NCBI GenBank assembly: GCA_002269645.1
Contig: NIVC01002834.1
Location: 1 to 41,760, forward strand
Direction: 5' to 3'
Source of the DNA: Macrostomum lignano
Taxonomy: Eukaryota
DNA: 41,760 nucleotides
The notes beneath the pieces were generated by a model. That model had not been told where the DNA came from. It ran no database searches and saw only the letters and a program-made list of their open reading frames with translations. The position numbers and the translations under genes are program-made. Below are positions 16,144 to 38,979 of this stretch, piece by piece; positions within the stretch are counted from its first letter, which is position 1, and each line of letters begins with the position of its first letter.

Positions 16144-17055
16144 AGTACCTGAAGCTGCTCCACAGTCAGCTGAGCCCGCCGACACCGCAGCAGCAGCAGC
16201 TGGGATCTCAGGCTCCCGCAGCTCTGCCGCTCGCAGCCGAACACCACAGGTCCTTCGACTTGGCAGACGAGGCCTCCTTGTCGATGTCGCTGCTGCCCGA
16301 GGACCTCAGCCTGAAGGACGCCAGCAGGGAGGTGCAGCAGCAGCAACGGCAGCGACTCAAGGCAGAGCCACCAGAGGAGGAGCTGCAGGACGCGGCTGAC
16401 TCGATGACAGCAGCAGCAGCAGTACCAGCAGCAGCGAACAGCGAACTTCTTGACGATGACTACATCGTTGACGATGTTGTAGACGACGATGGTGCATCGG
16501 CGATGGCTGATGACGGCATGAAGCTGGAGGTGACGGAGGAGCTGCAGCAGCTGCCGGACACCAGCGATGAGTCGCCACAGATGCAGCAGCCGCAGTCCAT
16601 CAAGACGACGCCAGTCAGGAAGTCACTGGGCAAGAACAGCGGCTTCCAGGATGGCGTGACAGTCGGGTACACCTTCGATGCATTCTTCGTCAGCGACGGC
16701 CGATCGCGGAAGCGCAACTCGGCGCTGCAGTCGGGCGCGTCGGCAGCCTCGGGCTCGGTTGTCGGCGATCCGACCGACTCCGCTGGCGCCGACGCCAAGT
16801 GTCGGACTCGGTACACCTGCAATGAGTGCGGCAAGGACTACGCCACCTCCAGCAACCTCAGCCGGCACAAACAGACCCACCGGAGCCTATACAGCCAGCT
16901 GGCCAAGAAGTGTCCGCACTGCAGCAAGACCTACGTGTCCATGCCGGCGCTGTCCATGCACATCCTGACGCACAGCTTGAAGCACAAATGCCACATCTGC
17001 GGCAAAGCATTCAGCCGGCCTTGGCTGCTCAACGGCCACCTCAGGGCGCATACAG
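16144..17055 (+). CDS. scrt: scratch exon 2: PEDLSLK motif, Scratch domain, C2H2 fingers 1-3
   Basis: Acceptor ctgacctttgcag| is phase-compatible with exon 1 (RRL-E-YLK). Scratch box GYTFDAFFVSDGRSRKR at 16665-16715. Fingers CNECGKDYATSSNLSRHKQTH, CPHCSKTYVSMPALSMHILTH, CHICGKAFSRPWLLNGHLRAH. Donor ACAG|gtgagt. Confidence 0.93.
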
Positions 17056-17079
17056 GTGAGTCAGATTTATCTATTTATT

Positions 17080-18467: not shown

Positions 18468-18497
18468 TCTAACCAGAGAATCGGAACCGTTCCGCAG

Positions 18498-18775
18498 GTG
18501 AAAAGCCGTTCGGCTGCGCTCACTGCGGCAAGGCGTTCGCAGACCGGTCGAACCTGCGCGCCCACATGCAGACTCACTCGGCCGAGAAGCAGTTCCGGTG
18601 CTCAAAGTGCGACAAGTCGTTCGCACTGAAGTCTTACCTGAACAAGCACCAGGAGTCGGCCTGCCAGACCTCTGCCGGTTCCATCTCAGCCGACGCCATG
18701 ATGGACGCGGACTCCAGGGCCGACTCAGCAGAGTGCATGACTCCATCAGCAGCTCAAGCCGACAACTCGCAATGA
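18498..18775 (+). CDS. scrt: scratch exon 3: C2H2 fingers 4-5 and stop
   Basis: Acceptor ttccgcag|GT restores TGEKPFGCAHCGKAFADRSNLRAHMQTHS...CSKCDKSFALKSYLNKHQESAC, the Scratch-type finger array. TGA at 18773-18775. Confidence 0.95.
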
Positions 18776-21022: not shown

Positions 21023-21270
21023 AGTAGTATATACGATACAAAATACCCAGCAAACCATTCTCACCATTGCAAACAATTTAACCCTTTATCAGTGTGAAAT
21101 GGCCTGTTTCCCTTCATTTTCGCTCGTCTTCACTTCGCTCAACTCGCTTCGCTCATCCTCGCTTCATTTCGGTCAAACAGGCCATTTCACACTTACAACG
21201 ATTAATTCTTTTTGAATGGTGAGAACACGCTCTCGTCGTTCGCTTTGGTTTGCTGGGTATTTTGTATCGT
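21023..21270. repeat. Left-terminal fold-back palindrome
   Basis: Perfect arms 21033-21056/21247-21270 (24 bp), 21058-21068/21215-21225 (11 bp), 21091-21109/21175-21193 (19 bp). Pyrimidine-rich loop with ttcgctc-type repeats. Confidence 0.9.
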
Positions 21271-21360
21271 CAACGCTTCCAACTCTCTCCAACACACACA
21301 AACTTTCTAGAACCCGTCGCACGCGCCGCAGGCGCTAAGGGTCTTTTTCTGTTACTAAAA

Positions 21361-21675
21361 ATGACCCGAGTTTACACCTTTTCTGTTAGTGATACTTTTG
21401 AGACTGTTGCTAAAAATGCAGAGATAATAAAACAACATATTTTGAATGGAATAATTGATGAAGTTTATTTAAAATATGACGACAAGCACGACCTAAAACT
21501 TTATCCATTAGAGCTAGATGAGATGTATGATTTAGAACAAGAGGGCGAGTTAATATTTCAACTTGGAGATTATTTAAATTCGGATGATTGGGAGGTTAGA
21601 TCAACAGATTCCGAATCAACAAATAGTTCATATGAAACCAGTGATTCAGAGAATGAAAGTGAAATTTTTATGTGA
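21361..21675 (+). CDS. Hypothetical viral protein, acidic C-terminus (~104 aa)
   Basis: ATG after taaaa; ORF track; no recognisable family. Confidence 0.65.
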   Translation: MTRVYTFSVSDTFETVAKNAEIIKQHILNGIIDEVYLKYDDKHDLKLYPLELDEMYDLEQEGELIFQLGDYLNSDDWEVRSTDSESTNSSYETSDSENESEIFM

Positions 21676-21691
21676 AAAAAATATTTAAAAA

Positions 21692-21916
21692 ATGAACTAT
21701 TATTCTATAACAGAAACGACATTTATTGTGAAAAATATATATAAAAAAATGAAGGTAAACTATTCCTACATCGGAAATGTGCCGATTAATGAACTTAATG
21801 AAAATTTAAGTTTGATAACAGTTGAACAAATGTCAATAATAATATTAGTAACAATTATAGTAATAATATTGTTTTTGTTTGTTATAAAAAATTTACTACC
21901 ATGTTGTCTCAAGTAA
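21692..21916 (+). CDS. Small single-pass membrane protein (74 aa)
   Basis: Hydrophobic stretch MSIIILVTIIVIILFLFVI followed by PCC; taaaaaATG start. Confidence 0.6.
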   Translation: MNYYSITETTFIVKNIYKKMKVNYSYIGNVPINELNENLSLITVEQMSIIILVTIIVIILFLFVIKNLLPCCLK

Positions 21917-21926
21917 TTGTTCGAAC

Positions 21927-23077
21927 TTAGTTCGCTGATATTAGTTGGTTCTCATAAAACGAACCCAATATTTCTTCACCGTCCTTATCAGCAATTATAT
22001 AGGTTGTAGGATTGGTATTTAAAACTTTACTGATAGTAAATTTCTCACTTATCTTCCAATATCCTTTTCTTCCTTTTTCAAACTTATCTTTCCATTTATA
22101 GATATAAACAGAATCACCAACTTTAAAATCTTTAGTTTTCTTTTTTTCAAATTTTCCAAAAGTAACCCTAACATTTTCAGGATTGTTATAAGCTTGTTGA
22201 GGAGTCATCTTTATAGCTGAATGATATGAATTGTTATAATCTTTCACTACGTCTGGTAATATTTTTACCCATTTTTGGTTACCATTAAGACTAAACTGAA
22301 ACCATAATTTCTTACCTAAAGTTCTATTAAATCTTTCTATTAATGCGTTTTTACTCTCTCCATAAATAGAATAAATTTTATTAATATACTCCCCATTCGC
22401 GTCCTTTTTCCTTTCTTGTCCTTTTTCAAAATGATATAATTTATACATATGAGGATTGTAAAATTCTTTTCCTTCGTCAACACACAAACGTTCGCTTTTT
22501 TCTCCAAGACTTCTAAAAGCAGCAGCAACATCCTCTCCTTTTTTGGATTTCAAAGGAACAGCCCACGCGTATCGAGTAAAACCATCTAATATGGTTAAGA
22601 TATATTTATATCCTCTTTCGTTCGGCATAGACATTAAATCAGCATACCAAATTTCGTTCTTTTTGAAGTTCATGATTTTTCTATAAAATTTAGGTTTTCG
22701 ATATTCTTTATGAAGAATCTTTGCCTCATCAGAACTTAACCCACCGCCACTTAACAACAAACACTCAACACAATTATTTCCATGTTGATTATAATTAATT
22801 CCCAAACCAAATTTAACTTTAGACTGCAAAATCTTTTTAACCATCCACCTAGTTAATCTCTGACCTACTGATAATCCCTGCAAGTTATCTAATCCTTGAA
22901 TCATTTTTTGATCGGCTTCATGTTTTAATCTTAATGCTTCCTCGGGTGAGTTCTTATCAGCATCTCTGTATGCTAAGTCATGATAGTATGCTAACCAATC
23001 AATACCGTTAATGGGAATTGAATCGGCTTTTGGAGTATTATCAGGATTTAATCGGAGATCGAGTCGAGTCAACCCGG
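21927..23077 (-). CDS. Exon 2 of PLA2X-integrase gene: PLA2 catalytic helix plus retroviral-type (rve) DDE integrase
   Basis: PINGIDWLAYYHDLAY (parvovirus-type PLA2 HD), KVKFGLG, then WYADL / CVDEGKEF / IERFNRT DDE triad and Polinton-type C-terminus FKVGDSV...GSFYENQL. One base appears missing just after the splice junction. Confidence 0.9.
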
Positions 23078-23403
23078 CCTTTATACCTTTGCTTTCACAA
23101 AGGAGTAGACTGTGTCTTAAGCTATCATAAGGATTGACTAAGTCCTTCAAGCCCACCAGCGTACAGTCGTTGCATCTCAACCATACTCAAGTCATATGAG
23201 GTTAGGTTTTCGATTCACTCTTGCCCATATATTTATCTTCAAGCTTGTTACCGTTGGGAAGAGGAGTTACCTCTGTTCCTTTGTAATCTTTCGAAAACAA
23301 AGTGGTACTTGAAGCTTTAGGGGATTGAGTGAGCGGCTGGTGTTGCCACTAATAGTGACTAGCAGTAGCTTTGCATCTACCACTCGGGCACAGCTCGAGC
23401 TCC
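23078..23403 (-). ncRNA. Group I self-splicing intron, IC1-like, 326 nt, no internal ORF
   Basis: P1 exon CGGGU with IGS GCCCG (U.G at the splice site). P3 CACCAGC/GCUGGUG. P4 UCACUC/GAGUGA. P5a CUUCAAG/CUUGAAG. P5b CUUUGU/ACAAAG with GAAA loop. P6 AUC/GAU. P7 ACGACUG/CAGUCU within AAGACACAGUCU. P9.0 CU/AG. P9 CCUUUGU-GAAA-GCAAAGG. Terminal G at 23078. Excision restores YNFAG|PG. Confidence 0.9.
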
Positions 23404-23529
23404 ACCCGCGAAGTTGTAAGATGGGATGTGTAATTCATTTGTATACCTTCCAGTAGTAAAGATTGGTGGTAAGCTTGTTAATCCTTTTTGAACATCTAAC
23501 AATCCTCCTTCAAACACTATTTGGCTCAT
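23404..23529 (-). CDS. Exon 1 of PLA2X-integrase gene (42 codons, ends ELHIPSYNFAG)
   Basis: taaaaATG at 23529. ELHIPSYNFAG matches the start of the viral PLA2 Ca-binding loop (cf. LPGYxYLGPG). Confidence 0.88.
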
Positions 23530-24127
23530 TTTTAATAGCCTTAAAAATACATGAAAGCACCAATTGTTTTGCAAATTCTTCTATGGTTGGTTGTTTATCA
23601 TTTTTTGAAATATTATCTACAGCAACTAAGTATCTTTTATTTCTCCAATTTTCAGACTTTTTAATTTGTTCTTCATCGCGATAATCAAAAGATGAAGCAG
23701 GAATAAAATGGTCAACATGCAAAACACCAATATAATCTTTTGGCACATAATAATGTTTTGTGAAATTTAACCAATCAGTAAAGAATTCAATTGAGCAACC
23801 AAGGTAATCAACAGTATGATTATTTTTTCGAGCATTATTAGATTTTAGAAGAGAATATATTCTATTTCGTGTGTTTAAAATAAGTTTGTAATTTTCATCA
23901 GTTAATCTTCTTTCATTTTGATATTTTCTGCGCCTTTCTATATTATTTTTATCATATTCTTTTTTCCATTGAAGCTTATATTCACGATTTTTCTCATACC
24001 ATTCTTTATCATACTTTCTCTCACAAGGTTTGCAAATACTATAATATCTATTTTGATCTCTACGAAATCTAAAATAATCCAAAATTTTCTCTTCTTTACA
24101 TTTATTACAAATTTTTGTTTCATCCAT
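23510..24127 (-). CDS. Free-standing HNH endonuclease with N-terminal CxxC/CxxC module
   Basis: CNKC...CKPC, charged helical linker, YLGCS, and LHVDHFIPASSF...WRN...DNISKNDK. Resembles HNH nucleases common in large DNA viruses (from memory of the motif). Confidence 0.82.
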   Translation of the reverse strand: MDETKICNKCKEEKILDYFRFRRDQNRYYSICKPCERKYDKEWYEKNREYKLQWKKEYDKNNIERRRKYQNERRLTDENYKLILNTRNRIYSLLKSNNARKNNHTVDYLGCSIEFFTDWLNFTKHYYVPKDYIGVLHVDHFIPASSFDYRDEEQIKKSENWRNKRYLVAVDNISKNDKQPTIEEFAKQLVLSCIFKAIKNEPNSV

Positions 24128-24155
24128 TTTATAAAAAAATAAATTTAACAATTAA

Positions 24156-24821
24156 TTAAACACCAGTATGTCCAGCAGCTTTCGCAGCAGCTAAAACAAG
24201 TTTTCGTGGTGTTTTAAATCCATCACCAACAGCTAGTTTGTTATTTATAGAATTAACAATCCTTTTATACAAGCTGGTATTTTTAACAGCTCCTCCTAAC
24301 TCATCATAAAAAATTCTAGCACTTATTAATTCATCCCTAGTATATAAATCAGGGTTAAATTTTACCCTAGGGTTCATAACAATATTATATGCTCCACCCA
24401 ATTCTCTATATAGTTCATTTCGATTTTTATCAACTCCACCAATTCGATAATTATTATTACCTAAATCTGTCGCAGCAATACTAGCTGGTACTCTTGGATA
24501 TTGTTCCCGATCGCCCCGCTCTGCACGTCTAATCTCTGCAATTCTCAATTGTGCTTGATCAACATCATAAGCAGGCGGCTCATCTAAAAGTTCATCCTCT
24601 TTTGGCTCAGTATTTTTAGCAATTTTTTCCAGAAGATCTTTATCTGTTTTTTCTAGTTCACTAATTTTCCCAGTAATAGGATTAACAAAAGGAGCAGCAA
24701 ATCTTTCACCCGCTAATTGTATTCCTAACTTTCTTTTTTGTAAATTTCTAACAAAATCAGAATATCTTTGCTTCTCTTTATAAATCGCTAACTCTCCATC
24801 AACGTCCATAAATTGACTCAT
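24156..24821 (-). CDS. Hypothetical viral protein (221 aa), possibly a protease-processed core protein
   Basis: taaaaaATG start; C-terminal AVGDG|F resembles an adenain site; function inferred. Confidence 0.7.
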   Translation of the reverse strand: MSQFMDVDGELAIYKEKQRYSDFVRNLQKRKLGIQLAGERFAAPFVNPITGKISELEKTDKDLLEKIAKNTEPKEDELLDEPPAYDVDQAQLRIAEIRRAERGDREQYPRVPASIAATDLGNNNYRIGGVDKNRNELYRELGGAYNIVMNPRVKFNPDLYTRDELISARIFYDELGGAVKNTSLYKRIVNSINNKLAVGDGFKTPRKLVLAAAKAAGHTGV

Positions 24822-24855
24822 TTTTTAACATAAAAAACTTTTTTAACTTAAAAAA

Positions 24856-26326
24856 ATGGCTGAAACAAAAACTATGTGGAGTGATAAATTTCATTTCAAA
24901 AAGCACCGACAGTATATTAATGAGGTCAGAGCAAAAGATTTAAATTATACCCTACCAACAAGTGATAATTCAAATAACTTTACTACTGGAACGGTAACTT
25001 TTGACATCGGCGCAACCAACACTATATTGGATATGAAAAATGCGTTTTTCCGCGTTAGATGGTTGTATACTAGAAATGATGGAACTGCTCTTGCAGCCGG
25101 AGATATCGCAGATCGATCCGGAATAATAATAGAAAATGATTGGTTTTATAAATGTTTTTCCCAAGCTCAACTAACTGTTAATGGTGCTGAGGTTGAGACA
25201 TCATCAAACCCCGCAGAGATTAATGGAGTTTTGAAACATTTAAATTATACTTATTTATCAAAACAAGTTGGTGCTAATGTTGGGTGGATGCCGGATAAAG
25301 GTAACGGTCAAGCAGTAGTTTTACCTAATGTACAAAACGCAGCCGGTGCAGATACTGCAGCGCTAATTGTTTACCTTAATACAAACATAGTTCCAGTTGT
25401 AACCACTATGACTAATACAAAAGATATTAATACTGGTTTTATAGATCGTCAGAATAAATTCCCAGTCGCGGTTTTAACCACAGCAACAGCATATGAGCAG
25501 GACTTTTCAATCTTTCCACTATTTGGGTTTTTCTCACCAAATCGGGTATGGAAAGGATTAAAATTTGGGATACAGTTGCAAATATCTGGTGGATATCAGC
25601 CTAGGATACTTTATGGAACCTCAATTTCAACCGATATAGCAGTTCGTATAGATTCAATTCAATTAGTCGTACCAACTATTGAGGTAACAGCCCGCTTTTA
25701 AAACACATCGATAATCAGTTAACGCATGATCAGGAAATATTTTATTTGAATCGTAGACACTTTATGCGAACCATTAATAACAATCAGGATTCATTCCAGT
25801 GGCAAATACTGACATCAAAACGTCGGGTGAGATATATTTTTGTTTGGTTTAAGATAACAAATAGAAGGAGTAAAAGAGCAAATGGGGATTTATATTGGCT
25901 TCAATCGGGTGACATAGCAGCACAAGCAGCTACCGCAACAGACAACGCAGTTGCTGCAATTAACGAGTTTAATGTTCAGAATATCCGCCTGCAGGTTGAT
26001 GATCAATATTATCCGGTTAAAGATCCTCTTAATCTAAATATTGCAAATAATAATGTTAATGATTTTATAAAATATTATCAAGATTATGCCAAAAATGAAG
26101 CGTATGCCGTCCCTCAGTACACACCCACAGAGTTTCTAAACATTCATCCAGTGGTTGTTTATGATCTAACGGCACAGAAAGAAAACGTAGCCAATATTGG
26201 ACTTAATTATATGTTAGAGATTAATAAAACGGTAATCAGGCACTTGACGCCCACGTATTGTTTCTAGAGGAATATATGTCAATTGCTAAAGCTGATGGCA
26301 CGATTGTTCGGGACGCGCCGCTGTAA
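24856..26326 (+). CDS. Major capsid protein (double jelly-roll), broken by two -1 frameshifts (~25695, ~26230)
   Basis: FSQAQLTVNGAEVETSSNP, VRYIFVWF, IRLQVDDQYYP...LNIANN, HPVVVYDLTAQKE match Polinton MCP motifs. Frames rejoin as ...PLLKHIDNQL... and ...GNQALDAHVLFLEEY...DAPL*. Confidence 0.8.
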
Positions 26327-26377
26327 AATGAGTGCAGGTCTCCGACCGTCGCGCCTATTTAAATTATTTCTTTAAAA

Positions 26378-27172
26378 ATGGTAAAGGCAAAACACGATAA
26401 GATATTTCCAAATGATCCTTTTCTTTGTTTAGTAATCGGAGGATCAGGTAAAGGAAAAACACACTTTGTTTACGATTTATTAACAACAGATGGAATGTTA
26501 GACTATAATAATTTAATAATTTATACTAATAAACCTAGAATAAAATATTATGAATTTCTTAAACATGGATTAAAAAACAAATTAAAAAAAGATGTCTTGT
26601 TTAGAATGTTAAGAGCATATGAGCAATATGAGGATGATGACGAACCGCGATTTAATCTAGCAGACATTGAGGATTTATGTAAAACAATGGCACAACAGCC
26701 AGAAAACATCACCGATCGCCCCGAAGGGTCGCGGACTTCGTCCGATCGCGCCCCAACTGTTAGAGTATCAACCCGATTAGCCTATGATCAAATTCCAAAA
26801 CATGATAAAACACTAATTATTTTTGATGATTGTATTAATGACGGTGATCAAGAATTACAAAAGGAAATTTTTGTTAGTGGTAGAGGAGATGGAATTGGAG
26901 CTTTTTATCTTACTCAATCCTTTAGAGAATTAGAATCGATTATAAAAAAGAATGCTAGCTGTTGTGTAATGTTTGATTTAGATAACTATGATCTACAAAA
27001 TATTCACGCTAGATTTAATCCCGGATTGGATGCAAAACCATTTAAAAGTATGTGTAAAAAAATTTGGGATGATAGCCAATACAAACATATTTATATCAAT
27101 CCGAGGTTAGAAAGGAAACATAGAATTTTAACAAATTTGATAAAAGAAGATAATGAGGAAGAAGAGACATAG
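26378..27172 (+). CDS. A32/FtsK-like DNA packaging ATPase
   Basis: Walker A GGSGKGKT, Walker B LIIFDD, SGRG and LTQS motifs. Confidence 0.92.
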   Translation: MVKAKHDKIFPNDPFLCLVIGGSGKGKTHFVYDLLTTDGMLDYNNLIIYTNKPRIKYYEFLKHGLKNKLKKDVLFRMLRAYEQYEDDDEPRFNLADIEDLCKTMAQQPENITDRPEGSRTSSDRAPTVRVSTRLAYDQIPKHDKTLIIFDDCINDGDQELQKEIFVSGRGDGIGAFYLTQSFRELESIIKKNASCCVMFDLDNYDLQNIHARFNPGLDAKPFKSMCKKIWDDSQYKHIYINPRLERKHRILTNLIKEDNEEEET

Positions 27173-27211
27173 CACGCGTACCTTCGGTACGATTAATTTC
27201 CCACTATAAAA

Positions 27212-27991
27212 ATGACTACAAATTTAAATACTATAAAACAATTGGTAGATCGAACTAATTCAAAATTTAGTACAACATTACAGTTTATAATGACAACCAG
27301 CGAGCAACGGATTCAATTGCGCGATCCATTACAACTTGATCAAAGCCTAAGTTATCAAATAGGTTTAATTCTATTTTCGGTTTTCAACATGCCTCAATTA
27401 ATTAATGCAACAAATAATCAATTTAGATATTCTAAAGATTCCGGAGCCAATTGGACAACATTTAGCGTTAACCCAGGAGCGTATAGCTATACTGATTTGA
27501 ATGCTTATATAGAAGGAGAATTAACAACTAATGGTGATTGGGTAGCAGGAGCAATTGTTATAGGTGTTGATTTACCGTCTGGCAGATTCACACTATCACT
27601 AGGATCCGGATATCAGGTTGATTTCACAATTGCAAATTCACTCAGAACCATACTTGGATTTAATTCCCGAATAGTTACCACATCAAGCACCGGTGATACA
27701 GTTGGAAATATAGAGGGTGGAGTAAATACAATTAATATAACAACCGACATTTCAAACGGTGGTTATATAACAGAATAACGGAGTTTTGGTTCAACGTGGA
27801 ATTATTTATTCAATCCCATTTCTTGCTGTTCCAATTGGAGAGAAAATGATTGTTGCACCCAAACCCCAATATATTATCCTTTAAATCAATATGTTCAATC
27901 AATTTATATTAGGATTGTAGATGAAAGCGATAGATTAATAAGTTTTGGTGGGCAGTCAATAACAATAATTTTACGTATAAAACAGGTTTAA
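27212..27991 (+). CDS. Minor capsid (penton) protein, two frameshifts near 27775 and 27868
   Basis: YQIGL..FSVFN...INATNNQFRY, PGAYSYTDLN, and C-terminal IYYPL...IRIVDESDRLISFGGQSITIILRIK after frame correction. Confidence 0.78.
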
Positions 27992-28004
27992 TCCTATAGT
28001 AAAA

Positions 28005-28187
28005 ATGGGTAATAATAATAATAATAATTTAATAAAAAAACAATCAGAAAAAGTTAAAAAAGCTGAAGATAATTACGAACTAGAACTAGCAAAATTAAGG
28101 CAGTTACAAGCTGATAAAATAAGAAAGGAATTGTTAAAACCCACACCTACGAAACTAACTAAAACCAAGAGTTTTTCAGGAACATAA
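28005..28187 (+). CDS. Small basic protein (60 aa) with N-terminal MG
   Basis: gtaaaaATG start; fills the gap between penton and protease. Confidence 0.55.
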   Translation: MGNNNNNNLIKKQSEKVKKAEDNYELELAKLRQLQADKIRKELLKPTPTKLTKTKSFSGT

Positions 28188-28188
28188 A

Positions 28189-28623
28189 ATGACCATGACG
28201 TGGGATGATTTTAAACAAAGATATGGAACGGACACAACAAGCAATATCGAATTAACAAATTGGGCGAGGCAGTTAAAAATAAAACCATTCAGATGTGTTA
28301 TGCGAGATGAGATCAAAGACTTACCACAATATGGATCTTACATTGTTAATATTGAAACAACAAAAGAAAATGGTGTTCATTGGTCAGCAGTTTATTCAAA
28401 ACCAAAACTTGTTTATTTTTTTGATTCATACGCGCTTCCTCCGTTACAGGAAATAAAAGACAAATTTAATCATACTAAAAATCGTTTATGTGGAGATCAT
28501 CACGAACAATTTCAAACATTTGATAAAAGTTATTGCGGGCAAGCGGCGTTGTATTTTTTATATCGACTTTCGAATGAAGCTCGTGTAAACCCCGAAGATC
28601 ATTTGCCGATGGCACGATTTTAG
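28189..28623 (+). CDS. Adenain/Ulp1-like cysteine protease
   Basis: Catalytic order GVHW, FFDSY, QFQ, YCG (His-Asp-Gln-Cys). Confidence 0.9.
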   Translation: MTMTWDDFKQRYGTDTTSNIELTNWARQLKIKPFRCVMRDEIKDLPQYGSYIVNIETTKENGVHWSAVYSKPKLVYFFDSYALPPLQEIKDKFNHTKNRLCGDHHEQFQTFDKSYCGQAALYFLYRLSNEARVNPEDHLPMARF

Positions 28624-28647
28624 ACTCTATAAAATAGACAGTAAAAA

Positions 28648-30630
28648 ATGTTATTTTCTGGAACACCCTCATGGAACGGAACAACAAGTAGTGGTGGTGG
28701 TGGCACATCTGGTGGAATAAGTGTTACATTTGGAGATAATCGATATATTAATGAAGATGAAGGTTATAAAAAAAGTGAAGTTGATACTAAACTAAATTTA
28801 AAAAGAAATGTTGCAGATTCCTATACCAAAACTCAAATAGATGATTCACTAAATCTGAAACGGAACGTAGCCGATTCCTATACCAAAACCGAAGTTGATA
28901 ATTCATTAAATTTAAAACGCAATACAGCCGATTCTTATACCAAAACAGAGGTTGATAATTCATTAAATTTAAAACGCAATACAGCCGATTCTTATACCAA
29001 AACCGAAGTTGATAATTCATTAAATTTGAAACGGAACGTAGCCGATTCTTATACCAAAACCGAAGTTGATAATGGATTAAATTTAAAAAGAGATGTAACT
29101 GATTCTTATTCTCGAACTGATTCTGATTCACGTTATGTTCAAACCACCGCAACCGGAAACCTAGATATGAGCAACAACCGAATTATAAATGTTTCAATTA
29201 CAACTAGTGATTCAGTGGTTGATAAGAACTATGTCGATAATCAAGTTGCCACTCGTAGTGGTAATATTAATATGAATAATTTTAAATTAACAAATTTATT
29301 ATTTGGAACAGATAACGCAGACTCGATAACTCTAGGCCAAGTAAACGAGCGAGCTAATGCAACCGACGCCGATATTTTTACCACGCCGCTTACATCAAAT
29401 ACTTCAAATCCTGATGTTGTTCTTACAGCATCTGAAAATGGCAACACAGCTTTTCGAGTTGGAGATGGAAGCCTTGCGACACAATGGTCACCAAATACCG
29501 GAACCACAACCAATATGGAAATTCAATTTGAATTTTTAGGTTATAATAGAAGAATATTTGAATTAAGAATTACAGGCAGTGAAACAATTGAGATACCCTC
29601 GGGTGGTCGGTTCGCGCAAAAAATGTTGCTACCGATTCATGGACGACATTAACTACGTCGGGATCACCAGTTCAAGCAACATCATTTGCTCTATCTAATT
29701 TAACGACTAATTTTTGGAAATATTATAGCGTATTCTTCCCAACTGGTGGTACCGGTACACAACCTATCGAGGTTCGTCAAATACAATTATTTGAACACCG
29801 TGTTGAAATTCAAGATCTTAATTGGCCAACTCAAATACTTTCTGCAGTTCCGCGAGCGTACGTAGATCAGCTAGCTACTCCAACATCAAATGGTAGAATG
29901 TCTGGAAGCGATAAAAATAAATTGGATGGAATACCTGCTATTGATGCGGCCTTGTTCGAACCAGTAATTTGCAATTGGTCTGGATATCAAAATCCAACAA
30001 CCGCCGGAGATATATATCCAGTCGGTTCTTTAATTGGTGACGCTTCTTATATCGATTATCAAAACGGCGCTAGAATTACTCGTGAAACTTCTGGAGTAAG
30101 TGGTGCTTTACAATTCAATTTCACACATTTTCAAAATATATCTGCGTCTTTCTTTTTCCGAGTTGCTAATGCTACAGGAGATGGTGCAGATGCGGTTTGG
30201 TTTTATGCATACTGTCACCAACGTCCAACATCGGAATTTGGATCTGGATTATCAACCGACGCCGGATTGATAGTTTTTGCTAGTGAGTGGCATGATAAAT
30301 TTGGACTTTGGAGTTAAAAAAAATCAGACGGATCAAGCGCGCGATGTTAATACTGACGCGGATCAAACTGTAGCCTATGCAAATATTGATAAATCGAATT
30401 CATACATACAATGTTGCTGGTGATTCTTATACCCTCATTGGCAGAACGTTTTCACATATGATAGTGGAACTTGGGGAACTTTGATAAATCTGGAACCTTA
30501 TGGGTTTTGGTGCTCGAACTGGAGGATCGGATGCTGCACATTTTATTCGTGGCGCAGTTTGTGGTAGTACGTCGTTTGGTTATGTTTTTCCTCTACTGCT
30601 TATTTGGAAAAACCTCCTACTCAAATATAA
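28648..30630 (+). CDS. Fiber/spike-like protein with 20-aa repeats and putative carbohydrate-binding modules; several frameshifts
   Basis: About 5 copies of KTEVDNSLNLKRNxADSYT (60-bp DNA repeat, ~28770-29110). NLDMSNNRIINV / NINMNNFKLTNL. GRMSGSDKNKLDGI. GDGADAVWF...GFGARTGG..H.I (L-lectin-like). Fragments 28648-29652, 29898-30317, 30500-30630. Confidence 0.7.
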
Positions 30631-30646
30631 AATATTTCTATATAAA

Positions 30647-30973
30647 ATGGCTTTTAGTAGAACTCCATCGATGCGGCAAAATAATGTTATTATTCCTATT
30701 CCTAAACAAGAATCAAATATAAAAACATTCAAATCTCATACCAAATTTTTATTTAGTACTGTAAATGTTCAGGATAATAAGAAGCTTCAAGAATTAATTA
30801 AGTTATTAAAAAATCATATTATACTTCAAGAGTTTTGGAAAATAGGATTTAAATGGGAGAAAAAAGAAAGAATAACTCCAATACAATACCTATTAAGCTC
30901 CGGGCAAATCCCCAAAGAGCGTGGGGAATTCATTTTGGTGCTATTAAAAATAGACGAGAATGTCGGTATCTGA
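30647..30973 (+). CDS. Hypothetical viral protein (~108 aa)
   Basis: taaaATG at 30647 within track ORF 30500..30973. Confidence 0.6.
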   Translation: MAFSRTPSMRQNNVIIPIPKQESNIKTFKSHTKFLFSTVNVQDNKKLQELIKLLKNHIILQEFWKIGFKWEKKERITPIQYLLSSGQIPKERGEFILVLLKIDENVGI

Positions 30974-31614
30974 AGCAGATAAATGGGAACGCGACCGGTT
31001 CAACCAACGTAAAGGTCAGATGTTAAGTAATGTTGATCGTATTAACTATGATTATGATTTATATGCTAAAAAAGTAAGAAGAGTTTCAAACCATATAAGA
31101 AATATGGACTTTTTCAATATTGGATTTGGAAGCTTATCAATGTTATGTGTAATCGTTTTAGGTATTTTACAATCTATTCCAACTCTTAATTTATCTCAAT
31201 TATTTTTAGGTATTTCAATTGGCTCAATATCAGGTTTTGAATTGATCAGGAACTTATCAATACTTTTAGCAATTAAATTATATCTTAAAAAAAGAAAGGA
31301 AAAATATAAATCTTTAAGAGATGTTGCAACAATATAAAAATCAATTATATTTATATGTGCAAAAAATATTGGATGACGGAGAGATAACGATTCATGAATT
31401 ATCAACCGCGGTTGAATTATATGAAAAATATTTAAAAGATAGAAATAGAATTTTAGATGTTGAAACTTTTACCGATATGGAATTAAAAGAGTTGAGACTC
31501 GATAAACCCAAAGCTCCACCGATAGAAACATTAGGCATTTACGAACCTGAAACTATTGCTACTGGGGCACAAAGCCCGCGGTCAGGAAGTGCTGTAGAAC
31601 TTCAGGTTGTTTAG
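30960..31614 (+). CDS. Two-TM membrane protein of a type common in Polintons (one frameshift ~31330)
   Basis: Basic run, two hydrophobic helices, KK-rich segment, then KILDDGEITIHEL...YEKY. ORFs 30960..31337 and 31321..31614 overlap. Confidence 0.62.
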
Positions 31615-32094
31615 TTTTTCTAATGCATATGTTATATATTCTTCCCAAAGTGGTAACTCTCTTCTGATCCTAGGTTTAAATTTTTTATCAATACATAAAA
31701 ATTCCAATGACTTTTTCAATAACATTTCGTTAGGTATGTTACCTATCCTTATAAACTTTGTATTCTCTCGAATAAGAAAATTGAAATAATATCCAACTAA
31801 AATTAAAATCCTTTCGGAGTCTTTCGAACTTAATCCCTTTCCTTTATTTAAATGGAAAAAGTTATTATATAAATAAACATTATTTCCGGGAATTAAAATT
31901 GGATCAGAAATGTCTCTTGTAAGATTTCTTAAAATTGTGTTTTTAAAATAGTAATATGAGTTTTCAATCTTTTTTGTTTTTTCAAATTGATATATTTTAG
32001 AACATGAATAACACATATGATATATATCTCCGTTTGCTGTTTGCCCTCTGTGCATAGTCACATTACATTTATTACAAACATAAATGTCTTTCAT
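31582..32094 (-). CDS. Hypothetical protein with N-terminal zinc ribbon (170 aa)
   Basis: CNKC-x17-CYSC; aaaaaATG start. Confidence 0.65.
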   Translation of the reverse strand: MKDIYVCNKCNVTMHRGQTANGDIYHMCYSCSKIYQFEKTKKIENSYYYFKNTILRNLTRDISDPILIPGNNVYLYNNFFHLNKGKGLSSKDSERILILVGYYFNFLIRENTKFIRIGNIPNEMLLKKSLEFLCIDKKFKPRIRRELPLWEEYITYALEKLNNLKFYSTS

Positions 32095-32120
32095 TTTTTT
32101 GTTATTTTTTTAGATTAAAA

Positions 32121-32453
32121 ATGGAGAGCTGGTTCAAAACCGATTCTAATGTGATTAATTATCTCACACCCAATATGTTGGAGAATAAAGAATATAATAT
32201 TGTATGTTTGAGACAGGTTAAATTTATTGGGCTTCAATCAATATTTTTACAATTAGATGGGCAAAAAATTTTATGTCTAAGCGGAGATGATGTTAAAAAT
32301 TTTCCTGTTTTAGTTATTAATAAACCTAAAGCGTTTGTTATGAAATACTGCAACGAGGGTGGATTGCAATTTAAACTAAAACAAACAAATAATAAAAAGA
32401 GTGATAGGACTGTAAAATTGGCGGCTGTTTGGGAGGATGACGACGAAGACTAA
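32121..32453 (+). CDS. Hypothetical viral protein (110 aa), acidic tail WEDDDED
   Basis: taaaaATG start; ORF track. Confidence 0.65.
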   Translation: MESWFKTDSNVINYLTPNMLENKEYNIVCLRQVKFIGLQSIFLQLDGQKILCLSGDDVKNFPVLVINKPKAFVMKYCNEGGLQFKLKQTNNKKSDRTVKLAAVWEDDDED

Positions 32454-32468
32454 ATTTTTTATAAGAAA

Positions 32469-32927
32469 ATGGATACGATAAAAATCCTTATCACTAAAGA
32501 GCGTGAACTTAATGATATTAATAAAAAAATAAATATAATTATATCTCAGAAATATCATGAGTATGGGGACGATATGTTTCCCATCCGATATGAGATAGAT
32601 AAAAGAAAACGTTTTTTAAGACAAGATATTGTTTATGCTGAAATAGTAATTGAAATTGAAATAGATAGATTGGTTAGAAAAATAAAAAAACTTAGGAAAA
32701 AAATAAAGGATTGTTTAAGTTACCCTGACGACTGCGAGGAAAATTGGCCTTCAATATTATATGAAATCGAAATGGATATTATGCTTAAACAATTACATGC
32801 TTTAGTTTTTTTCCGCCCGAAGGGTCGCGGATTTTATCCGATAAGTAATTTTTCTGTTAATCTCTTCCAGTTATTCAAGACTTTTTCCTTATTTAATTTT
32901 TTAAGTTCTTTTGGAAATGTTGAATAA
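32469..32927 (+). CDS. Hypothetical basic/coiled-coil protein; 3' end overlaps pPolB tail antisense
   Basis: ORF track; true end may be earlier (hairpin element at 32813-32840). Confidence 0.5.
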   Translation: MDTIKILITKERELNDINKKINIIISQKYHEYGDDMFPIRYEIDKRKRFLRQDIVYAEIVIEIEIDRLVRKIKKLRKKIKDCLSYPDDCEENWPSILYEIEMDIMLKQLHALVFFRPKGRGFYPISNFSVNLFQLFKTFSLFNFLSSFGNVE

Positions 32928-35900
32928 TAATTATCTATATCTTTTTCATATTCTAGAAATGTATTATATTCACAATCACATTCGGATTCACAATCACAAT
33001 CGTAATAATAATTATTTATTGCCGCTTTGTATTCATTATATTTACTTATTATATCTTCTTTTTGTTTTTTATCTTTTATCATATTTTTTATCTCTTCTTT
33101 TAAACCATATGGATATGTTTTAATTTTATCATCTAAATATCTTTTATCATCAAATGGACTTAATGTTTTTTTATCTGTCTCGATGACAAACATCTGATGC
33201 TTATCTGAATTTAATCGATATTGTGGAGCATGATAATTTTCAATTGTATTAAGGTAATCTAAAAGTACGTTTTTATAATCATCAAATGTTATCTTTTTTA
33301 CTGCTGCTCTTGATACCCCTTTTATTTTTTTTACCTCTCCCTCCTGTCCTAAAACCTTAAATGCATAGCATTTTGATCTTATTGCTATAAACTCGGTTAT
33401 GATTTTGCTATTTAATTCATCTTTCATTTTAAGTACAACTTTTTTATTTTGATCTGATTTTAAAGGATGGTTATCCGGATAGTCGGATGTGTCCAATGTA
33501 TCCTTAATTTTTTCCATATCTTTATAGACATCGAACCTTTGGTTCGCGGCTGCCCGATCTCTGTTTCAACCTTAAATACCAAACTGTCGGTGTCTGCATA
33601 TATTGGATAGTTATCTGGCCATGTTTTATTTATAACATCATAATAATATTCATACATTACCAGCTTTGCATAATCTAAAACAACCATTCCAATAAATATT
33701 GGTTTAAGAAATTTTGTTGTTTTATTTCTCATATGAATACCCATAAAGTTATCATCAAATTTTATAAAGTCTTTAAAGTTAGGTTTTGAGAAATATTTCT
33801 TTGCTTTATCAATATCCTTTTCTAAATGGAATTGGGTTCTATCTCTAATATTTTCAACCGTTTTTCCATAAAAAGCATTATTCATTAATTTCCAATAATC
33901 TTTCTCAAAATTTGTTTTTGACATCTGTCTCTGATTTGAATTAAAGTCAATATATTTAGCTAACCAATCTTCCTCAATAAACGATATTGTTCGATGTACT
34001 TTAGACACTTTTAATCCCTGCTTTTCATAAAATTGTAGAAGCTTATAATGCACTACATAGTTTTTCTTATCATGTAAATTTAATATTAATTTTTTTGTTG
34101 CTAGATGTTTTGCATTATCTACTTTAAGATAATCTTTTTGTGTTTGTGATAAATCATCTTCATTAACTGAACAATGCTCTGGAGCTAAAGGATATTTATA
34201 TGTTTTTGCTTTTGCTTCCCGAGTATATTGCAAATCCACCTCTACAATACAGCCCCTTCCTTCGGGAATATTTTTGTAATAATCGGGGTCATCTTCCCAT
34301 TGGAAATCAGCTATTGGTAATTTTTGTTTCATACAACCACCGTATAAATTGTTTGCATCTAGATATAATACATATGATGATTTTTCTTTTTTATTATAAT
34401 TTGGTAGATATTTATTATTTACTTTAGTATATCTATCTCCTAGTACACCCGAGAATCCGCCGCGAATTCCTCTCTCAATCATTAACAACATATCATGATC
34501 AGTTAGTAAATCAATCTTAACATCTGTATGTTTCAAACCACAAGCCCATGTTAATCCCGGTGCACTGAAACAATATGCGGGATCAATTTTAAAATTCTCA
34601 TATGTATGATTCCTAAAGTTTTCAAATGCATCAGCTAATAGGAGAACATCTGCTTTAAGATATAGATTATGATAATCTTTAAATGTTTTACAATTAAAGT
34701 ATTTCCATACTTTTTGAGCGTGTTCATAATCCGATTCACTTATGTTTGTTTGTGATAATGTTGAATAAAACTTTTCAATTGGGGGTAATTCGGTATGAAA
34801 AAATACGTCTTCAGATGTTACATATTCATATGGGTAGATGCCCTTACGAGTTAATAGCATTAGTTCTTCCTCGGATAGTTTTTCCTTTTTGAAACGATTC
34901 AATAGTATTGGAAAGTTTTTCTTTACTATTTCTAAATCCCATGGTTTTGGAACTAATGATGAAACAACATTTGCTAAAGATGTTGATAAGAATCTCAAGG
35001 AATCTAGAAAAACTAGATGGGAGTATTTCTTACCATATGTTATTGATATGTAATTTTCTGATGTTTTAGGTAATATATTTATTTCATATTCATCCTTTCC
35101 TAAATGAAGCAATTCTCGAACTAAGAAATGAAAATCATATCCGGAACCATTATGAAAAAATACTGGTATTTCCTTACATCCTTTTCCTTCTTTTGCATTA
35201 CATGATCTACATGCTGCCCCTCGATAATTTCCGTTAGATGACAATGTTCTCGTATCTTATTTTTCTTACTTAAATATCTTTTGCACATAAAACAATTTGT
35301 TGCATTTTTATAATTGTCTCTATCCTTATTTGTCATATTAATATTTTTTGATAATTTATCATATTGATTTTGAATATATTCAAATACATTTACTAATGAT
35401 TCTGCCATGTGCTTAGCTGCATCATTACCGTGGTAAGTAATCATCCTTGATTTAAATATATGATCAGCTACGGAGTGTACATATATACAATAACTATTCG
35501 GAAACTGTTGTGCAATTTTTTTGTGCATTCACCGTCCCGTAGGGTCGCATGCTTTGCATGACCGTCATCAGATGCCGTCTGTGATTCTTTTAAGGGAACA
35601 TTTGTTGCTTCAAAATCAGCATATATTACTATTGGTTTTTTAACTGCCATATAATGTTGTTGGAACTTTAGGGTTGCATCTTCAGATGCTGGCATTATAG
35701 CATTAGTAAATTTGTGATCTAAACAAAATCGTTGGTGGTTTTTAAGAGCTGTTTCATCCTTTTTAAATGTAAAACAATTTCTACATAGTGGATATCTATT
35801 TCTATTTTCTCTTAAAAAAGAACTAATATCTTTTATGTATATATAATGTGTTTCATTTTCGCGCTGCATGTACAAAAGATCGATTTGATCTGGTGCTGTT

Positions 35901-36568
35901 ATATCAGTTGCTGGCTTAACAAGATAACACCTTTTCTTATACCATTCTGGATCGACCTGCTGAATTTCTTCTAGATCTTTGGTTCTTCAATTGTAAAACA
36001 TTAATATTTAAACCATTCATTTTTTCAATCTTATATATATCATCTATTGCTACTGGGTATGATATGTTTTTCATTATTATTTCATCCTCATATTGTCTAT
36101 AATTATATATTTTATTAATGTGTGATTCTACTTGATTGTGATATTTATGAATTAATAAACACCATAATAAACATTTATTATCTTTATTGTCTGGATTTAT
36201 AATCATAGGTGATTTAAATTTGAGCTTCATATGTGATCGTCCTTTAAGAATTTCTATAGGTGCAATCTTTACTATTGCTGAATTACAGATACAAATATAA
36301 ACCCAGATCCGTTTTCTGTCATCTTATCTATCCATTCATCAAACTCAGCTTCTATTTGATCGAATTGATTGTTGTAATTTCCCATTGATAATAATGTTTT
36401 ATATGATTCTTGTGAAAAGTTATTTATTACTTCAATTTCTGAATTTGCATTAAGAATATTTGGTTTTTTAAATTCTGTTTCAACTTCTATTTTATACTTA
36501 ATTGGCTGTCGTTTGTTATTTGGCCTTATAGTATAATTGTTTAATATAGTCTTTAATTTATCTTTCAT
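32834..36568 (-). CDS. polB: Protein-primed family B DNA polymerase (pPolB) with EndoVII-like insertion; split by about 5 frameshifts
   Basis: Exo IYADFE, FHNGSGYDFHF, YLKADVLLLAD. Pol YLDANNLYG, KLMNNAFYGK, YADTDS, IRSKCY, KKIKGV, PFDDKRY. N-terminal GSGFIF...IINPDNKDNKCLLWC. Confidence 0.95.
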
Positions 36569-36618
36569 TTGTTTAAAATATTCTTTATAATTTGTATTTA
36601 TATCTATATCTATATATA

Positions 36619-36810
36619 TTACTTCAGCTCCATTTTGTCCTTGTGGTTGGGGTTATTAATATCATTTAATTGTCTTTCTAAACGTATCTCATTTTCTGCC
36701 CTAATTCTTGCTTCTATTTCAGCCCTATCGGCAATTCGTTGTGCATCGATTTGAGCTATTAATTGTGCTCTAAGTTCAGGGTTGTCGATTTGAGCTAAAA
36801 TTGCTTCCAT
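36619..36810 (-). CDS. Small coiled-coil protein (63 aa)
   Basis: taaaATG start; ORF track. Confidence 0.5.
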   Translation of the reverse strand: MEAILAQIDNPELRAQLIAQIDAQRIADRAEIEARIRAENEIRLERQLNDINNPNHKDKMELK

Positions 36811-36894
36811 TTTATAGAATAAAATTTATATAATGTTTGAATTATTGATTTTTTAATTTTGCGTTTTTGGTGTCTTGACCCACCCCCCAGGAGC

Positions 36895-37889
36895 CTATTC
36901 GAGATCTGCTTTTGGTAATAGCAATCCATTGCCCATAACATTTGAATTTAAGAAAATTCCTGAACCTGCTTTTGGTCGCATTTCGAGATATAATCCGCTT
37001 CCGTCGTGTTTTTCAATGATGTTAAAATCTTTTCCTAACTTAGTAAAAATCTTCTGAACTGCTGGCCTAAAATTGGATCCAATATTGTCAAAAAATCCTT
37101 TAGCTTTCTCACCCGTTTTTTCTAAAGTTTGGCCAAATTCATGTAGTTTATCTGCGACAACTCCACTTCCTTGGGTTGTTCCTTTTAGTACCAAACCATT
37201 CCCGTGATTTGTTCCTTGCAAGAGTAAACCTTTTCCGGCTGCTAACCTAGCTTCTGCATTTCTTTTTTGCTCTGCTGTTGCTGAACTACTATTAATGTAT
37301 CAATAAGTTTCTGTTTGAATTGTGCGTCCTGCGTTATTTGCTGTCTTTGAAATTCGGCCTCTCTTTTAGCTTTTTCGTCCGCAGCTTTTTTGTCATTTAC
37401 TGCTTTTGCAATTCCAGCTGCTCCGCCAGCAACTCCTCCAGCTGCTCCAATTCCTGCAAAAATTATTGGGAGCAAAGCTGCAAGGGGCAAGATTCCCCCC
37501 TGTTTCGCTCTTAACTCTCCTAGCTGTTTTACATTATCATGAATTCTTTTTCCGGCTAAACCGACTGCTCCAGCTGCGCCAAGTCCTAAAAGAAGCGGTA
37601 GAATGGGTAGTAATCCGCCGTCCTTTTTAGTGTGAGTCTCCATTAAAAATTTCACATCGGAGTCTGTCAACCTATAATTTCTGCCGCGATTCTTAAAGGA
37701 TATTGGCCTTCCTTCTTGTGCATATTTTGCTGCGAGTTTAAATGTATCGATGTCGTAGTCAAACTTTTTACCTAATCGATCCAATCTTTTTAACATTGTG
37801 TGGGTTTGCTTATTATCATCAAGATTTAAGGTATCTACAATTTCTCCTATAAAATATAACCGGTTTTCATCATCATTAACTGAGTCCAT
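36895..37889 (-). CDS. Gly-rich core/membrane-lytic precursor with adenovirus pX-like segments and serial GxG sites (one frameshift ~37290)
   Basis: DGG|LLPILPLLLGLGAAG and QGG|ILPLAALLPIIFAGIGAAGGVAGG. After +1 correction continues AAGKG, HGNG, QGSG, DGSG, AGSG, MGNG. Confidence 0.65.
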
Positions 37890-37899
37890 TTTTATATTG

Positions 37900-38298
37900 T
37901 TAAAATTTCTTTAATCCTTTTCCACCTTTAATAGTATTTAACATTTTATTAAAATCCTGAATATCTTTATTACTTATTGGCGTGGTTTTCGTGGGGGTTT
38001 CTGTTGGTTGTGCGGCTTGTGCCAGCTTTAAATCTTTTATTGCATTTATTTGTGAGAGGGTGTCGTTAAAATCTCTCAATTTCTTTAGTTCTTCTGCCGC
38101 TCTAGCTGCTTCAATTCCTCCTTTTACAGCATTTGTTATAGAGCCTGCTGCAGAGCCAGCTTGCCCTATAAGCCCCATATTGTCTTTAACAAAATTTGCT
38201 GCTGTTCCAACCAAATCAAAAAGTCCCTCACCTCGGTATTCAATTGGATCTCCTACCTGATACTCATTTATATTTTGCACATGTGTAACGTGTGTCAT
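37900..38298 (-). CDS. Putative core protein (132 aa) with RGEG|LF site and amphipathic helix
   Basis: aaaaaaATG at 38298; YRGEGLFDLVGTAANFV; C-terminal KGGKG. Confidence 0.65.
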   Translation of the reverse strand: MTHVTHVQNINEYQVGDPIEYRGEGLFDLVGTAANFVKDNMGLIGQAGSAAGSITNAVKGGIEAARAAEELKKLRDFNDTLSQINAIKDLKLAQAAQPTETPTKTTPISNKDIQDFNKMLNTIKGGKGLKKF

Positions 38299-38712
38299 TT
38301 TTTGTTCTATTTTTAGTAACAGAAAAAAAGAATACGAGAACACACAAAAGAATATTTTTCAACCCAAGATGGTGTATATACTGCATTGAGTCATTTTTTT
38401 CTGGACGTCCAGAATTTTTCTGGACGATTTGTTAAAAACTTATTCATTGATGGTGGGCACCCCATTTTACTTGTGACGCGCGGAGCCTGTCTTCTTCTTC
38501 CTGAGAGATGAGCTAGAACTGGGTTGATGGCTGTGGTTTTTATAGAGTTGGATGGCTGAGTGGGCGTTCAATTCCTGCTACGGCAAGATTTTGCAAGCTA
38601 GCCAATAGTGGCTATGAGAGTAATTTTTTGTTGAGTGTTACTATTACCATGACTCAGTTTAAACTCTTTTGTGACCCTTCGCGCCTGCGGCGCGGGCAAG
38701 GGGTTATAGAGT

Positions 38713-38979
38713 AGTAGTATAGAAAAAGACGCTTCTAGATCAGACCTTATTTTAATGACCGTTTGTAAGGTCTTAAGAGGGGGGACGCGAGGGGAGTGTT
38801 GGGGAGTGTTTGGAAGTGTTGGGAATGATTTTTATTGTCAGGGGTGATTATGGGTGATTAGATGTGTTAAGGGTGTTTAGATGTGTTTTTTTATTTACCC
38901 CCCGTGTCCCCCCTCTAGACCCTTAAAACGGTCATTAAAAAAGTGCTCTGGGTCTAGAAGCGTCTTTTTCTATACTACT
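38713..38979. repeat. Right-terminal fold-back palindrome
   Basis: Perfect 27-bp arms 38713-38739/38953-38979 extended by an imperfect ~50-bp stem; G/T-rich loop with gagtgtt-type repeats. Confidence 0.9.

Follow-up and report, generated by a model that had tools for sequence, protein, structure and literature searches.

Animal Polintons/Mavericks are elements of 13-25 kb that encode an integrase, pPolB, ATPase, protease and capsid, and are bounded by TIRs of a few hundred bp with (AGT)2 tips and a 6-bp TSD; in nematodes, two distant pPolB types occur in one family with common TIRs (PMC8097293; 10.1101/2023.08.22.554363). The Macrostomum lignano element described here resembles them in these respects, its capsid and protease being putative, but the available portions of the same sources describe neither a long fold-back of the TIR nor a pair of unrelated TIR classes with a common box, nor do they describe copies whose ends differ although the TSDs match. 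The present end structure was likewise not reported for animal Polintons in the literature searched.

Terminal palindromes have been described in endogenous virophages and PLVs of Halocafeteria, in which, as here, the palindrome lies inside the TIR and adjoins the TSD, the integrase is of the RVE type and a role in replication has been proposed (10.64898/2026.07.28.741278). According to the available part of that preprint, however, these palindromes measure 52 nt in the subtype shown, were screened with gaps of up to 10 nt, and mostly accompany non-pPolB replication genes, whereas the M. lignano element is an animal Polinton with pPolB and has imperfect stems of 240-310 nt with loops of 60-100 nt. 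The Galileo element of Drosophila mojavensis also shows TIR subfamilies, chimeric copies of two subfamilies, solo TIRs and variation of TIR length by internal repeats, but it belongs to the cut-and-paste P-element superfamily; its chimeras have, in the portion of the source available, non-matching TSDs, like the window but unlike the insertions at site X, in C926 and at the C164 site described below (PMC3573991). Adenovirus and phage PRD1 share protein-primed strand displacement, for which end-to-end pairing has been proposed to restore identical ends (PMC11886824). Unlike Polintons, they do not integrate. Their ITRs are not known to be long self-folding units. Some parvoviruses have dissimilar hairpin ends, with terminal fold-backs of 100-300 nt; the M. 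lignano element differs from them in having neither flip/flop nor a fixed left/right pair, and no Rep/NS1 nickase was found among the window ORFs scanned.

The window, which is the whole stretch of 41,760 nt analysed, was taken from contig NIVC01002834.1. On balance, we consider that it contains a Polinton with self-folding hairpin TIRs of two classes (A and B) and a shared box, that the window itself is likely misassembled, and that the insertion on its left side probably represents a natural hybrid of A and B.

Structure and gene content of the element

The features of the window were as follows.

21017-21022, plus strand: left target-site 6-mer GTGGTC of insertion site X, found once in the empty alleles C150 and C2833 and behind the class B end in C2322
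21023-21343, plus strand: left TIR, class A, 321 bp, comprising tip, fold-back, C/A-rich spacer and box; paired-copy matches stop at base 321, and the flank junction is present in a run X2 contig
21033-21270, plus strand: class A fold-back stem-loop with the terminal 10 nt unpaired, supported by fold z -10.65 and arm co-variation
21311-21343, plus strand: shared subterminal box at the inner TIR end, rare T allele, 29/33 to the right box
21361-21675, plus strand: 104-aa ORF directly inside the box, from the ORF list, with no Pfam match
21927-22904, minus strand: retroviral-like integrase (Pfam rve, E 6.7e-08)
24856-26267, plus strand: putative double-jelly-roll major capsid gene, split over two ORFs, the first assigned by atlas look-alikes and the second by position only
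26378-27172, plus strand: packaging ATPase (Pfam Pox_A32, E 9.5e-07)
28099-28977, no strand: mosaic zone in which the contig changes from insertion X to insertion Y, by diagnostic alleles
28189-28623, plus strand: probable adenain-like maturation protease, by atlas look-alikes
32834-36568, minus strand: protein-primed polymerase region with a 466-aa piece among its ORFs (ORF list), with homologues carrying PF03175
38673-38705, minus strand: right subterminal box, common G allele, by box comparison
38713-38979, minus strand: class B fold-back in which the terminus is paired to its own inverted copy further inward, supported by fold z -14.56 and arm co-variation
38673-38979, minus strand: right TIR, class B, 307 bp, part of insertion Y, with 307/307 identity to Y's other end in C4508
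38980-38985, plus strand: target-site 6-mer TTCGCC of insertion site Y, found in the empty alleles C1881 and C84 and also in C4508, where it precedes the integrase-side class B end

The Pfam matches of the integrase and the packaging ATPase are those expected of a Polinton/Maverick. The 466-aa polymerase piece of the window had no direct Pfam match, but 4067 homologues were retrieved at E <= 0.001, some with PF03175, which identified it as pPolB; the other polymerase type of the family, in C2322, matched DNA_pol_B_2 (E 1.9e-18). Neither the putative capsid nor the putative protease gave a Pfam or PDB sequence match. In a language-model atlas, the look-alikes of the first capsid piece (0.97) fell in clusters in which 39% of members carried DJR-like and 11% Sputnik MCP families. 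For the putative protease, look-alikes at 0.97 belonged to clusters whose members carried Peptidase_C5 in 13-19% of cases, and one at 0.95 to a cluster in which 62% did. The (AGT)2 tips were present, a 6-bp TSD was found in 38 distinct insertions of the family, and matching TIRs of 100-1500 bp characterised the family but not site X, C926 or the C164 site. The Pfam scan of 25 element ORFs (E <= 0.01), many of which remained without assignment, detected no HUH nickase family (Rep/NS1), and a search of viral_contigs for the box pattern and the ATPase gave no match.

The termini at 21023 and 38979 have AGTAGTATA (9 bp) in common and diverge from base 10. The boxes at 21311-21343 and 38673-38705 match at 29 of 33 positions, so that the claim of the earlier note that the ends share only these two elements held on re-measurement. 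The left fold-back (arms within 21033-21270, loop of about 64 nt, first 10 nt unpaired) had a predicted energy of -62.0 kcal/mol (z -10.65) and the right one (38713-38979) of -77.1 kcal/mol (z -14.56), with none of 100 shuffled sequences equally stable in either case. The right fold-back is a perfect inverted repeat over its outer 27 nt, terminus included, which agrees with the internal repeat of the terminal sequence noted before. From tip to box, the left and right ends show no relationship except for one C/A-rich stretch of 26 columns (local score 30, against a mean of 18.6 and a maximum of 27 in 300 shuffles); apart from this stretch, the description of each end as its own unrelated palindrome was confirmed. 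No TSD was found, the left 6-mer being GTGGTC and the right TTCGCC, a point that the earlier note had overlooked.

Two classes of hairpin ends in one family

Each TIR of the family begins with the tip AGTAGTA, which is followed by a fold-back some 240-310 nt long, a spacer that varies and the GC-rich box common to both classes. Nearly every end is a self-folding hairpin of one of two unrelated types: classes A and B are not related in sequence from tip to box, whereas one and the same subterminal body is found with either class. A 21-nt box pattern had 225 exact matches in the genome. The T-allele pattern had 6, forming three TSD-matched pairs. Among the TSD-matched insertions, a count that leaves aside about 35 cross-contig class B pairs matched by eye from their 6-mers, 33 of 38 had ends at least 96% identical and only one was A/B; 4 of 50 pairs were left unscored by the script. 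Most insertions are A/A or B/B. The earlier note had named, as a result against its reading, conventional TIRs in other copies together with palindromes belonging to separate MITEs or Polinton families. The first was found in most copies; the second was rejected, the palindromes being TIRs of one Polinton family in two classes. All of the top 60 loci were joined to Polinton inner sequence.

The long fold-back was present in at most 104 of 109 distinct TIRs. The proposal that each end anneals to itself therefore applies to nearly all ends but fails for 6 class A ends that have lost the long stem, including both ends of a TSD-matched 5.9-kb copy, which indicates that the stem is not needed for the persistence of every copy. 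Loops measured 60-100 nt and were G-poor in both classes. Changes in one arm were mirrored in the other in 30 of 36 cases in class A (15 arm types) and 99 of 120 in class B (29 arm types), and in both classes this co-variation exceeded all 2000 shuffles, which ignore kinship between types. In C1680 and C904/C1307, the inner arm was rewritten to fit the outer arm. These two observations speak for a fold-back in use, although the mirroring could come from template switching alone, without function. One solo class B unit with its own TSD was found among the termini listed, and no solo class A unit among 50 class A termini.

The window probably joins two insertions

The pair of ends in the window very probably derives from two insertions, X and Y, joined by assembly. 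On the left flank, two empty alleles (C150 and C2833) continue differently from the window; for the right flank, an empty allele and a class B partner end were found in C1881, C84 and C4508. Diagnostic sites carried the X allele at 10 of 10 positions before the mosaic zone and the Y allele at 43 of 45 after it, while within the zone the alleles were interleaved (12 X, 14 Y and 1 other). The suspicion of a chimera of two elements was thus correct for the window, whose flanks come from two loci and whose body changes copy at 28.1-29.0 kb. A real chromosome rearrangement by ectopic recombination between X and Y is quite unlikely. Any two near-identical 18-kb copies can recombine, and patchy heteroduplex repair could produce the mixed zone; but X and Y each have their true partner end elsewhere, the right junction or flank of Y recurs in three contigs, and joins of this kind, with non-matching TSDs, make up 8 of 35 scored in-contig pairs. 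Mosaic ends also occur in the assembly, C4508 carrying 98 nt of another copy's flank. The 8 joins among the 35 scored in-contig copies call for caution with this assembly.

Insertions with probable mismatched ends

A few insertions, including the left one of the window, likely carry two different ends, and the insertion at site X is probably a true A/B hybrid. In C2322, a class B end is followed by the GTGGTC 6-mer and then by empty-site sequence, and the class changes inside the box. Both ends at site X carry the rare T-allele box. The 1200 nt inside the C2322 box had 1 difference from a class A copy and at least 50 from all 7 class B copies compared. Where the window and C2322 overlap, they have the same allele at 10 of 10 diagnostic sites, which indicates that X is one element; a tandem of A/A and B/B copies was rejected on this ground. 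The hairpin of C2322 differed from every other end with which it was compared, and at two sites it has the minority allele. Mismatched class B subtypes were found in a TSD-matched insertion in C926 (80%) and at the C164 site with C4623/C4208 (252/352 columns); the latter lies inside a high-copy repeat, where two elements may have inserted independently at a single base. C1574 (class A) and C153 (class B) have matching 6-mers but were not counted as a hybrid, both being integrase-side ends with AT-rich flanks.

Contigs of 4 of 16 listed public runs were aligned to the empty site X. The left class A junction was seen in a contig of one run (X2), the other three giving the empty allele only, and the right class B junction was not seen in the contigs of these four. 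A short junction contig or a filter could account for the latter, which we take as evidence neither way. It would also be expected if the class B end were a consensus artefact, X being really A/A and the family having only matched ends apart from drift. The mosaic flank in C4508, the greater number of class B than class A ends among the termini listed and the many contigs that stop inside copies fit this explanation as well. We regard it as rather unlikely, since a majority consensus should have erased the rare T allele, which lies directly inward of the switch, as well as both minority alleles of the hairpin, whereas all of these were kept, and C926 and the C164 site independently have mismatched ends. 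Slightly less probable is a real hybrid made after integration, through a break in one hairpin for which a class B copy served as repair template from the box outwards, with the strands rejoined at the 9-bp tip. The switch does lie in the invariant box core adjoining kilobases of homology, and chimeric Galileo copies have been ascribed to ectopic recombination and conversion; yet the TSDs of those chimeras do not match (PMC3573991, as far as available), such repair would have had to rejoin cleanly on three occasions, each time on 7-9 bp of microhomology and without damage to the TSD, and alone it does not explain why one body occurs in both matched B/B and matched A/A copies. If the hybrid is real, it is reasonably likely to have formed before integration.

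Possible replication and end exchange

Polinton replication is not known to have been observed. A replication model is still cited in the available Polinton literature (PMC8097293; 10.1101/2023.08.22.554363), and panhandles are described as still without direct evidence even in PRD1 and adenovirus (PMC11886824, available part). We tentatively propose, at somewhat less than even confidence, that the hairpins are local snap-back origins. In protein-primed replication by strand displacement, each end of the displaced strand would fold back on itself without need of the far end, restoring duplex at the origin (class B) or beside it (class A). Co-replicating copies would switch templates in the box or body and yield genomes with two different ends, which the integrase would accept because it likely reads only the common tip. 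In most cases, identity of the ends would then be restored by end-to-end pairing and copying, which would transfer hairpin classes from one body to another. Such swapping followed by homogenisation is supported by TSD-matched A/A (C271, C2140) and B/B (C110, C326) copies, which have the start of the polymerase-side inner sequence in common. More doubtfully, the ends may be self-sufficient, interchangeable modules. Each hairpin would then rebuild its own origin on the displaced strand, free genomes whose ends are unrelated would replicate and integrate, ends would be exchanged at the box, and class B ends, serving as direct repeats, would allow a copy to be reduced to one solo hairpin, much as a solo LTR is formed.

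Hairpins without a role, arising as by-products of fold-back template switching and maintained by the same process, are not very likely; this concerns function only and is compatible with hybrids. Arm-to-arm rewriting and the loss of the stem in some ends would fit it, but two unrelated sequences converge on the same size, position and G-poor loop, and bulges stay imperfect in most lineages, with no collapse to perfect palindromes. Some parvoviruses have single-orientation ends; the absence of flip/flop here thus lowers the probability of parvovirus-like replication, in which hairpins self-prime from the 3' OH, nicking resolves them and left and right ends are fixed, without closing the matter. 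The class B 3' end, paired to the last base, would be a ready self-primer, and hairpin priming has been proposed for protist virophages and PLVs with terminal palindromes, although in the available part of that preprint these palindromes are mostly tied to non-pPolB elements (10.64898/2026.07.28.741278). Such replication appears highly unlikely, given the 10 unpaired nt at the class A terminus, the protein-primed polymerase gene of the element and the lack of any flipped loop in 109 distinct TIRs. A fixed left/right pair of the parvovirus kind was likewise not borne out, each class being found at both the integrase end and the polymerase end.

Two unrelated end classes provide natural genetic markers for Polinton replication. 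The insertions with mismatched ends resemble intermediates caught in the course of recombination and end correction. They also show that integration requires little identity between the ends, and TIR-based Polinton finders would miss them. Class A ends without a partner among the termini listed (C925, the minus end of C1680, both ends of C506 and C2957) suggest that more hybrids may exist.

Terminal hairpins of the Polinton family

The element at window positions 21023..38979 is a Polinton, its integrase and ATPase having been matched by Pfam and its polymerase identified through homologues, while a putative capsid and protease were assigned from look-alikes. The polymerase and capsid genes are fragmented in this contig. 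The earlier note had described unrelated fold-back ends, and its account was exact: the termini share 9 bp and the GC-rich box (29/33 identical), and the interval from tip to box has only a short C/A-rich stretch in common. The features at the two ends are as follows.

21033-21270, left fold-back (z -10.65)
38713-38979, right fold-back (z -14.56)
21344-21363 and 38299-38330, T-rich motif at each end, preceding the outermost ORF's start codon

The T-rich motif directly follows the box in many family copies, and the two together may form a candidate inward promoter.

Each window end was used as a query against its own genome and gave at least 40 full-length matches, the best 40 of 224 and the best 40 of 246 candidates being scored. 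All 60 loci returned run on into Polinton inner sequence; therefore, the palindromes are TIRs. The box forms the inner end of each TIR. A 21-nt box pattern had 225 exact matches in the genome, and its reversed control had none. The 109 distinct TIRs extracted comprised 37 of class A and 72 of class B, two unrelated self-folding types. Pairing starts at base 1 in all class B ends and at base 9-19 in class A stems; a long stem is absent from 6 class A ends.

Changes in the outer arm were mirrored in the inner arm in 30/36 cases for class A and 99/120 for class B, against averages of 16.5 and 44.7 for shuffled pairings. None of 2000 shuffles attained the observed values in either class, where class A types pairing at fewer than 19/24 had been removed beforehand and the shuffle ignores relatedness. 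In contigs C1680 and C904/C1307, a portion of the inner arm was rewritten to fit the outer arm. Both patterns suggest that the stems do pair. A search for flipped loops in the 109 TIRs gave none. The copy at G000:C904:21225-21430 (L124) carries a 185 bp tandem duplication that includes the box.

The window as a probable join of two insertions

The two window ends have unlike TSDs. At the left flank (insertion X, GTGGTC), empty alleles carry on into other sequence, and for the right flank (insertion Y, TTCGCC), empty alleles and the partner end, which is class B and 307/307 identical, were found in C1881, C84, and C4508. Insertions X (C2322) and Y (C4508, C380) are distinguished by 82 diagnostic sites. 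The window carries the X allele at 10/10 sites up to 27,880 and the Y allele at 43/45 sites beyond 28,977, with the alleles interleaved between 28,099 and 28,977 (12 X, 14 Y, 1 other). Such interleaving would be expected of a consensus built from two read piles, and the window is very probably an assembly join of X and Y; a real chromosome rearrangement between them is improbable. Coding repeats of 57 bp occupy 28764-29109 within a 334-aa ORF in this mosaic zone.

Insertion X itself probably has truly mismatched ends, class A on the left and class B on the right. Its right junction lies in C2322, where a class B end is followed by the identical 6-mer and then the empty-site sequence, and both ends bear a box allele whose 6 genome matches make up three TSD-matched pairs. 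The 1200 nt inside the box of C2322 differ at 1 position from the class A copy C4108, with near-identity extending over about 6 kb; against 7 class B copies, every comparison gave 50 or more differences. Since the body matches a class A copy and the hairpin is class B, the hairpin was swapped within the invariant box core. This hairpin has at least 3 differences from every other end compared and carries minority alleles, and is thus unlike a majority consensus. However, two points count against a hybrid X: C4508 shows a foreign flank spliced onto an end in this assembly, and contigs of four public runs contained only the left class A junction, in one 2015 run that may come from the assembly's own sample.

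Pairing of ends across insertions

Among 50 end pairs examined, 4 were not scorable, 8 in-contig pairs had mismatched TSDs, and 38 rows (37 insertions) had matched TSDs, the cross-contig rows having been picked by TSD match and so not forming a random sample. With one added site, the 38 TSD-matched insertions were 17 A/A, 20 B/B, and 1 A/B. The two ends were at least 96% identical in 33 of them and differed chiefly by spacer length in 2 (C1197, C1867), and the hairpins differed in 3. C926 (one contig, matched TSD, ends 80% identical) and C164 with C4623/C4208 (252/352 identical, empty sites located in a high-copy repeat) are mismatched class B subtypes.

In C151 and C926, a short stretch of inner sequence from the integrase side is repeated at the polymerase-side end, which extends the TIR to about 354 bp. 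A Polinton copy in C926 contains a ~9 kb insertion (L191-L192; G000:C926, about 145,200-154,600) with two copies of a segment starting like the class B tip; a search for ORFs of at least 150 aa from ATG found none in it.

Proposed replication and known systems

According to two sources (PMC11886824; 10.64898/2026.07.28.741278), protein-primed strand displacement yields a single strand that needs a duplex origin again, and the standing model for its recovery is end-to-end pairing. By local fold-back, a class B 3' end could re-form its duplex origin with sequence about 270 nt away; a class A end could re-form a duplex adjoining its 10-nt free tip. This would let genomes with mismatched ends replicate, and the integrase would require the tip alone. 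End-to-end copying would mostly bring back end identity; such a step would be needed because matched A/A and matched B/B copies were found on one and the same subterminal body.

The element is a Polinton by membership, and no description of this end structure for animal Polintons was found in searches of open-access literature. The nearest systems in print are protist virophages and PLVs with short terminal palindromes (10.64898/2026.07.28.741278), Galileo with chimeric and solo TIRs (PMC3573991), and nematode Polintons, which have two pPolB types (pPolB1/pPolB2), like the two polymerase types here. The latter alternate at one place (C2322, C2140, and C4108 versus window 32834-36568), and tblastn of the second type against the window's polymerase gave no match at E 1e-5.

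Solo and derivative copies

A solo class B unit of 335 bp with its own 6-bp TSD was found at G000:C12:947145-947479 (L170); both of its ends carry outer-arm sequence. Such a unit is what would remain if the two TIRs of a full copy recombined with each other. C1040, C393, C1052, and C349 contain shortened derivatives (about 3, 4, 6, and 8 kb) that have TSDs and the ends typical of the family. Copy-in-copy insertions occur in C2506 and C2140, one in a TIR spacer and one in a capsid gene.

Elsewhere in the window, a host C2H2 zinc-finger gene (16107-18629), which we take to resemble Scratch/Snail, is broken up by a 15-bp repeat present in about 100 copies, and a 39-bp inverted repeat at 484-658 (95% complementary, arms 97 nt apart) is possibly a small host transposon.
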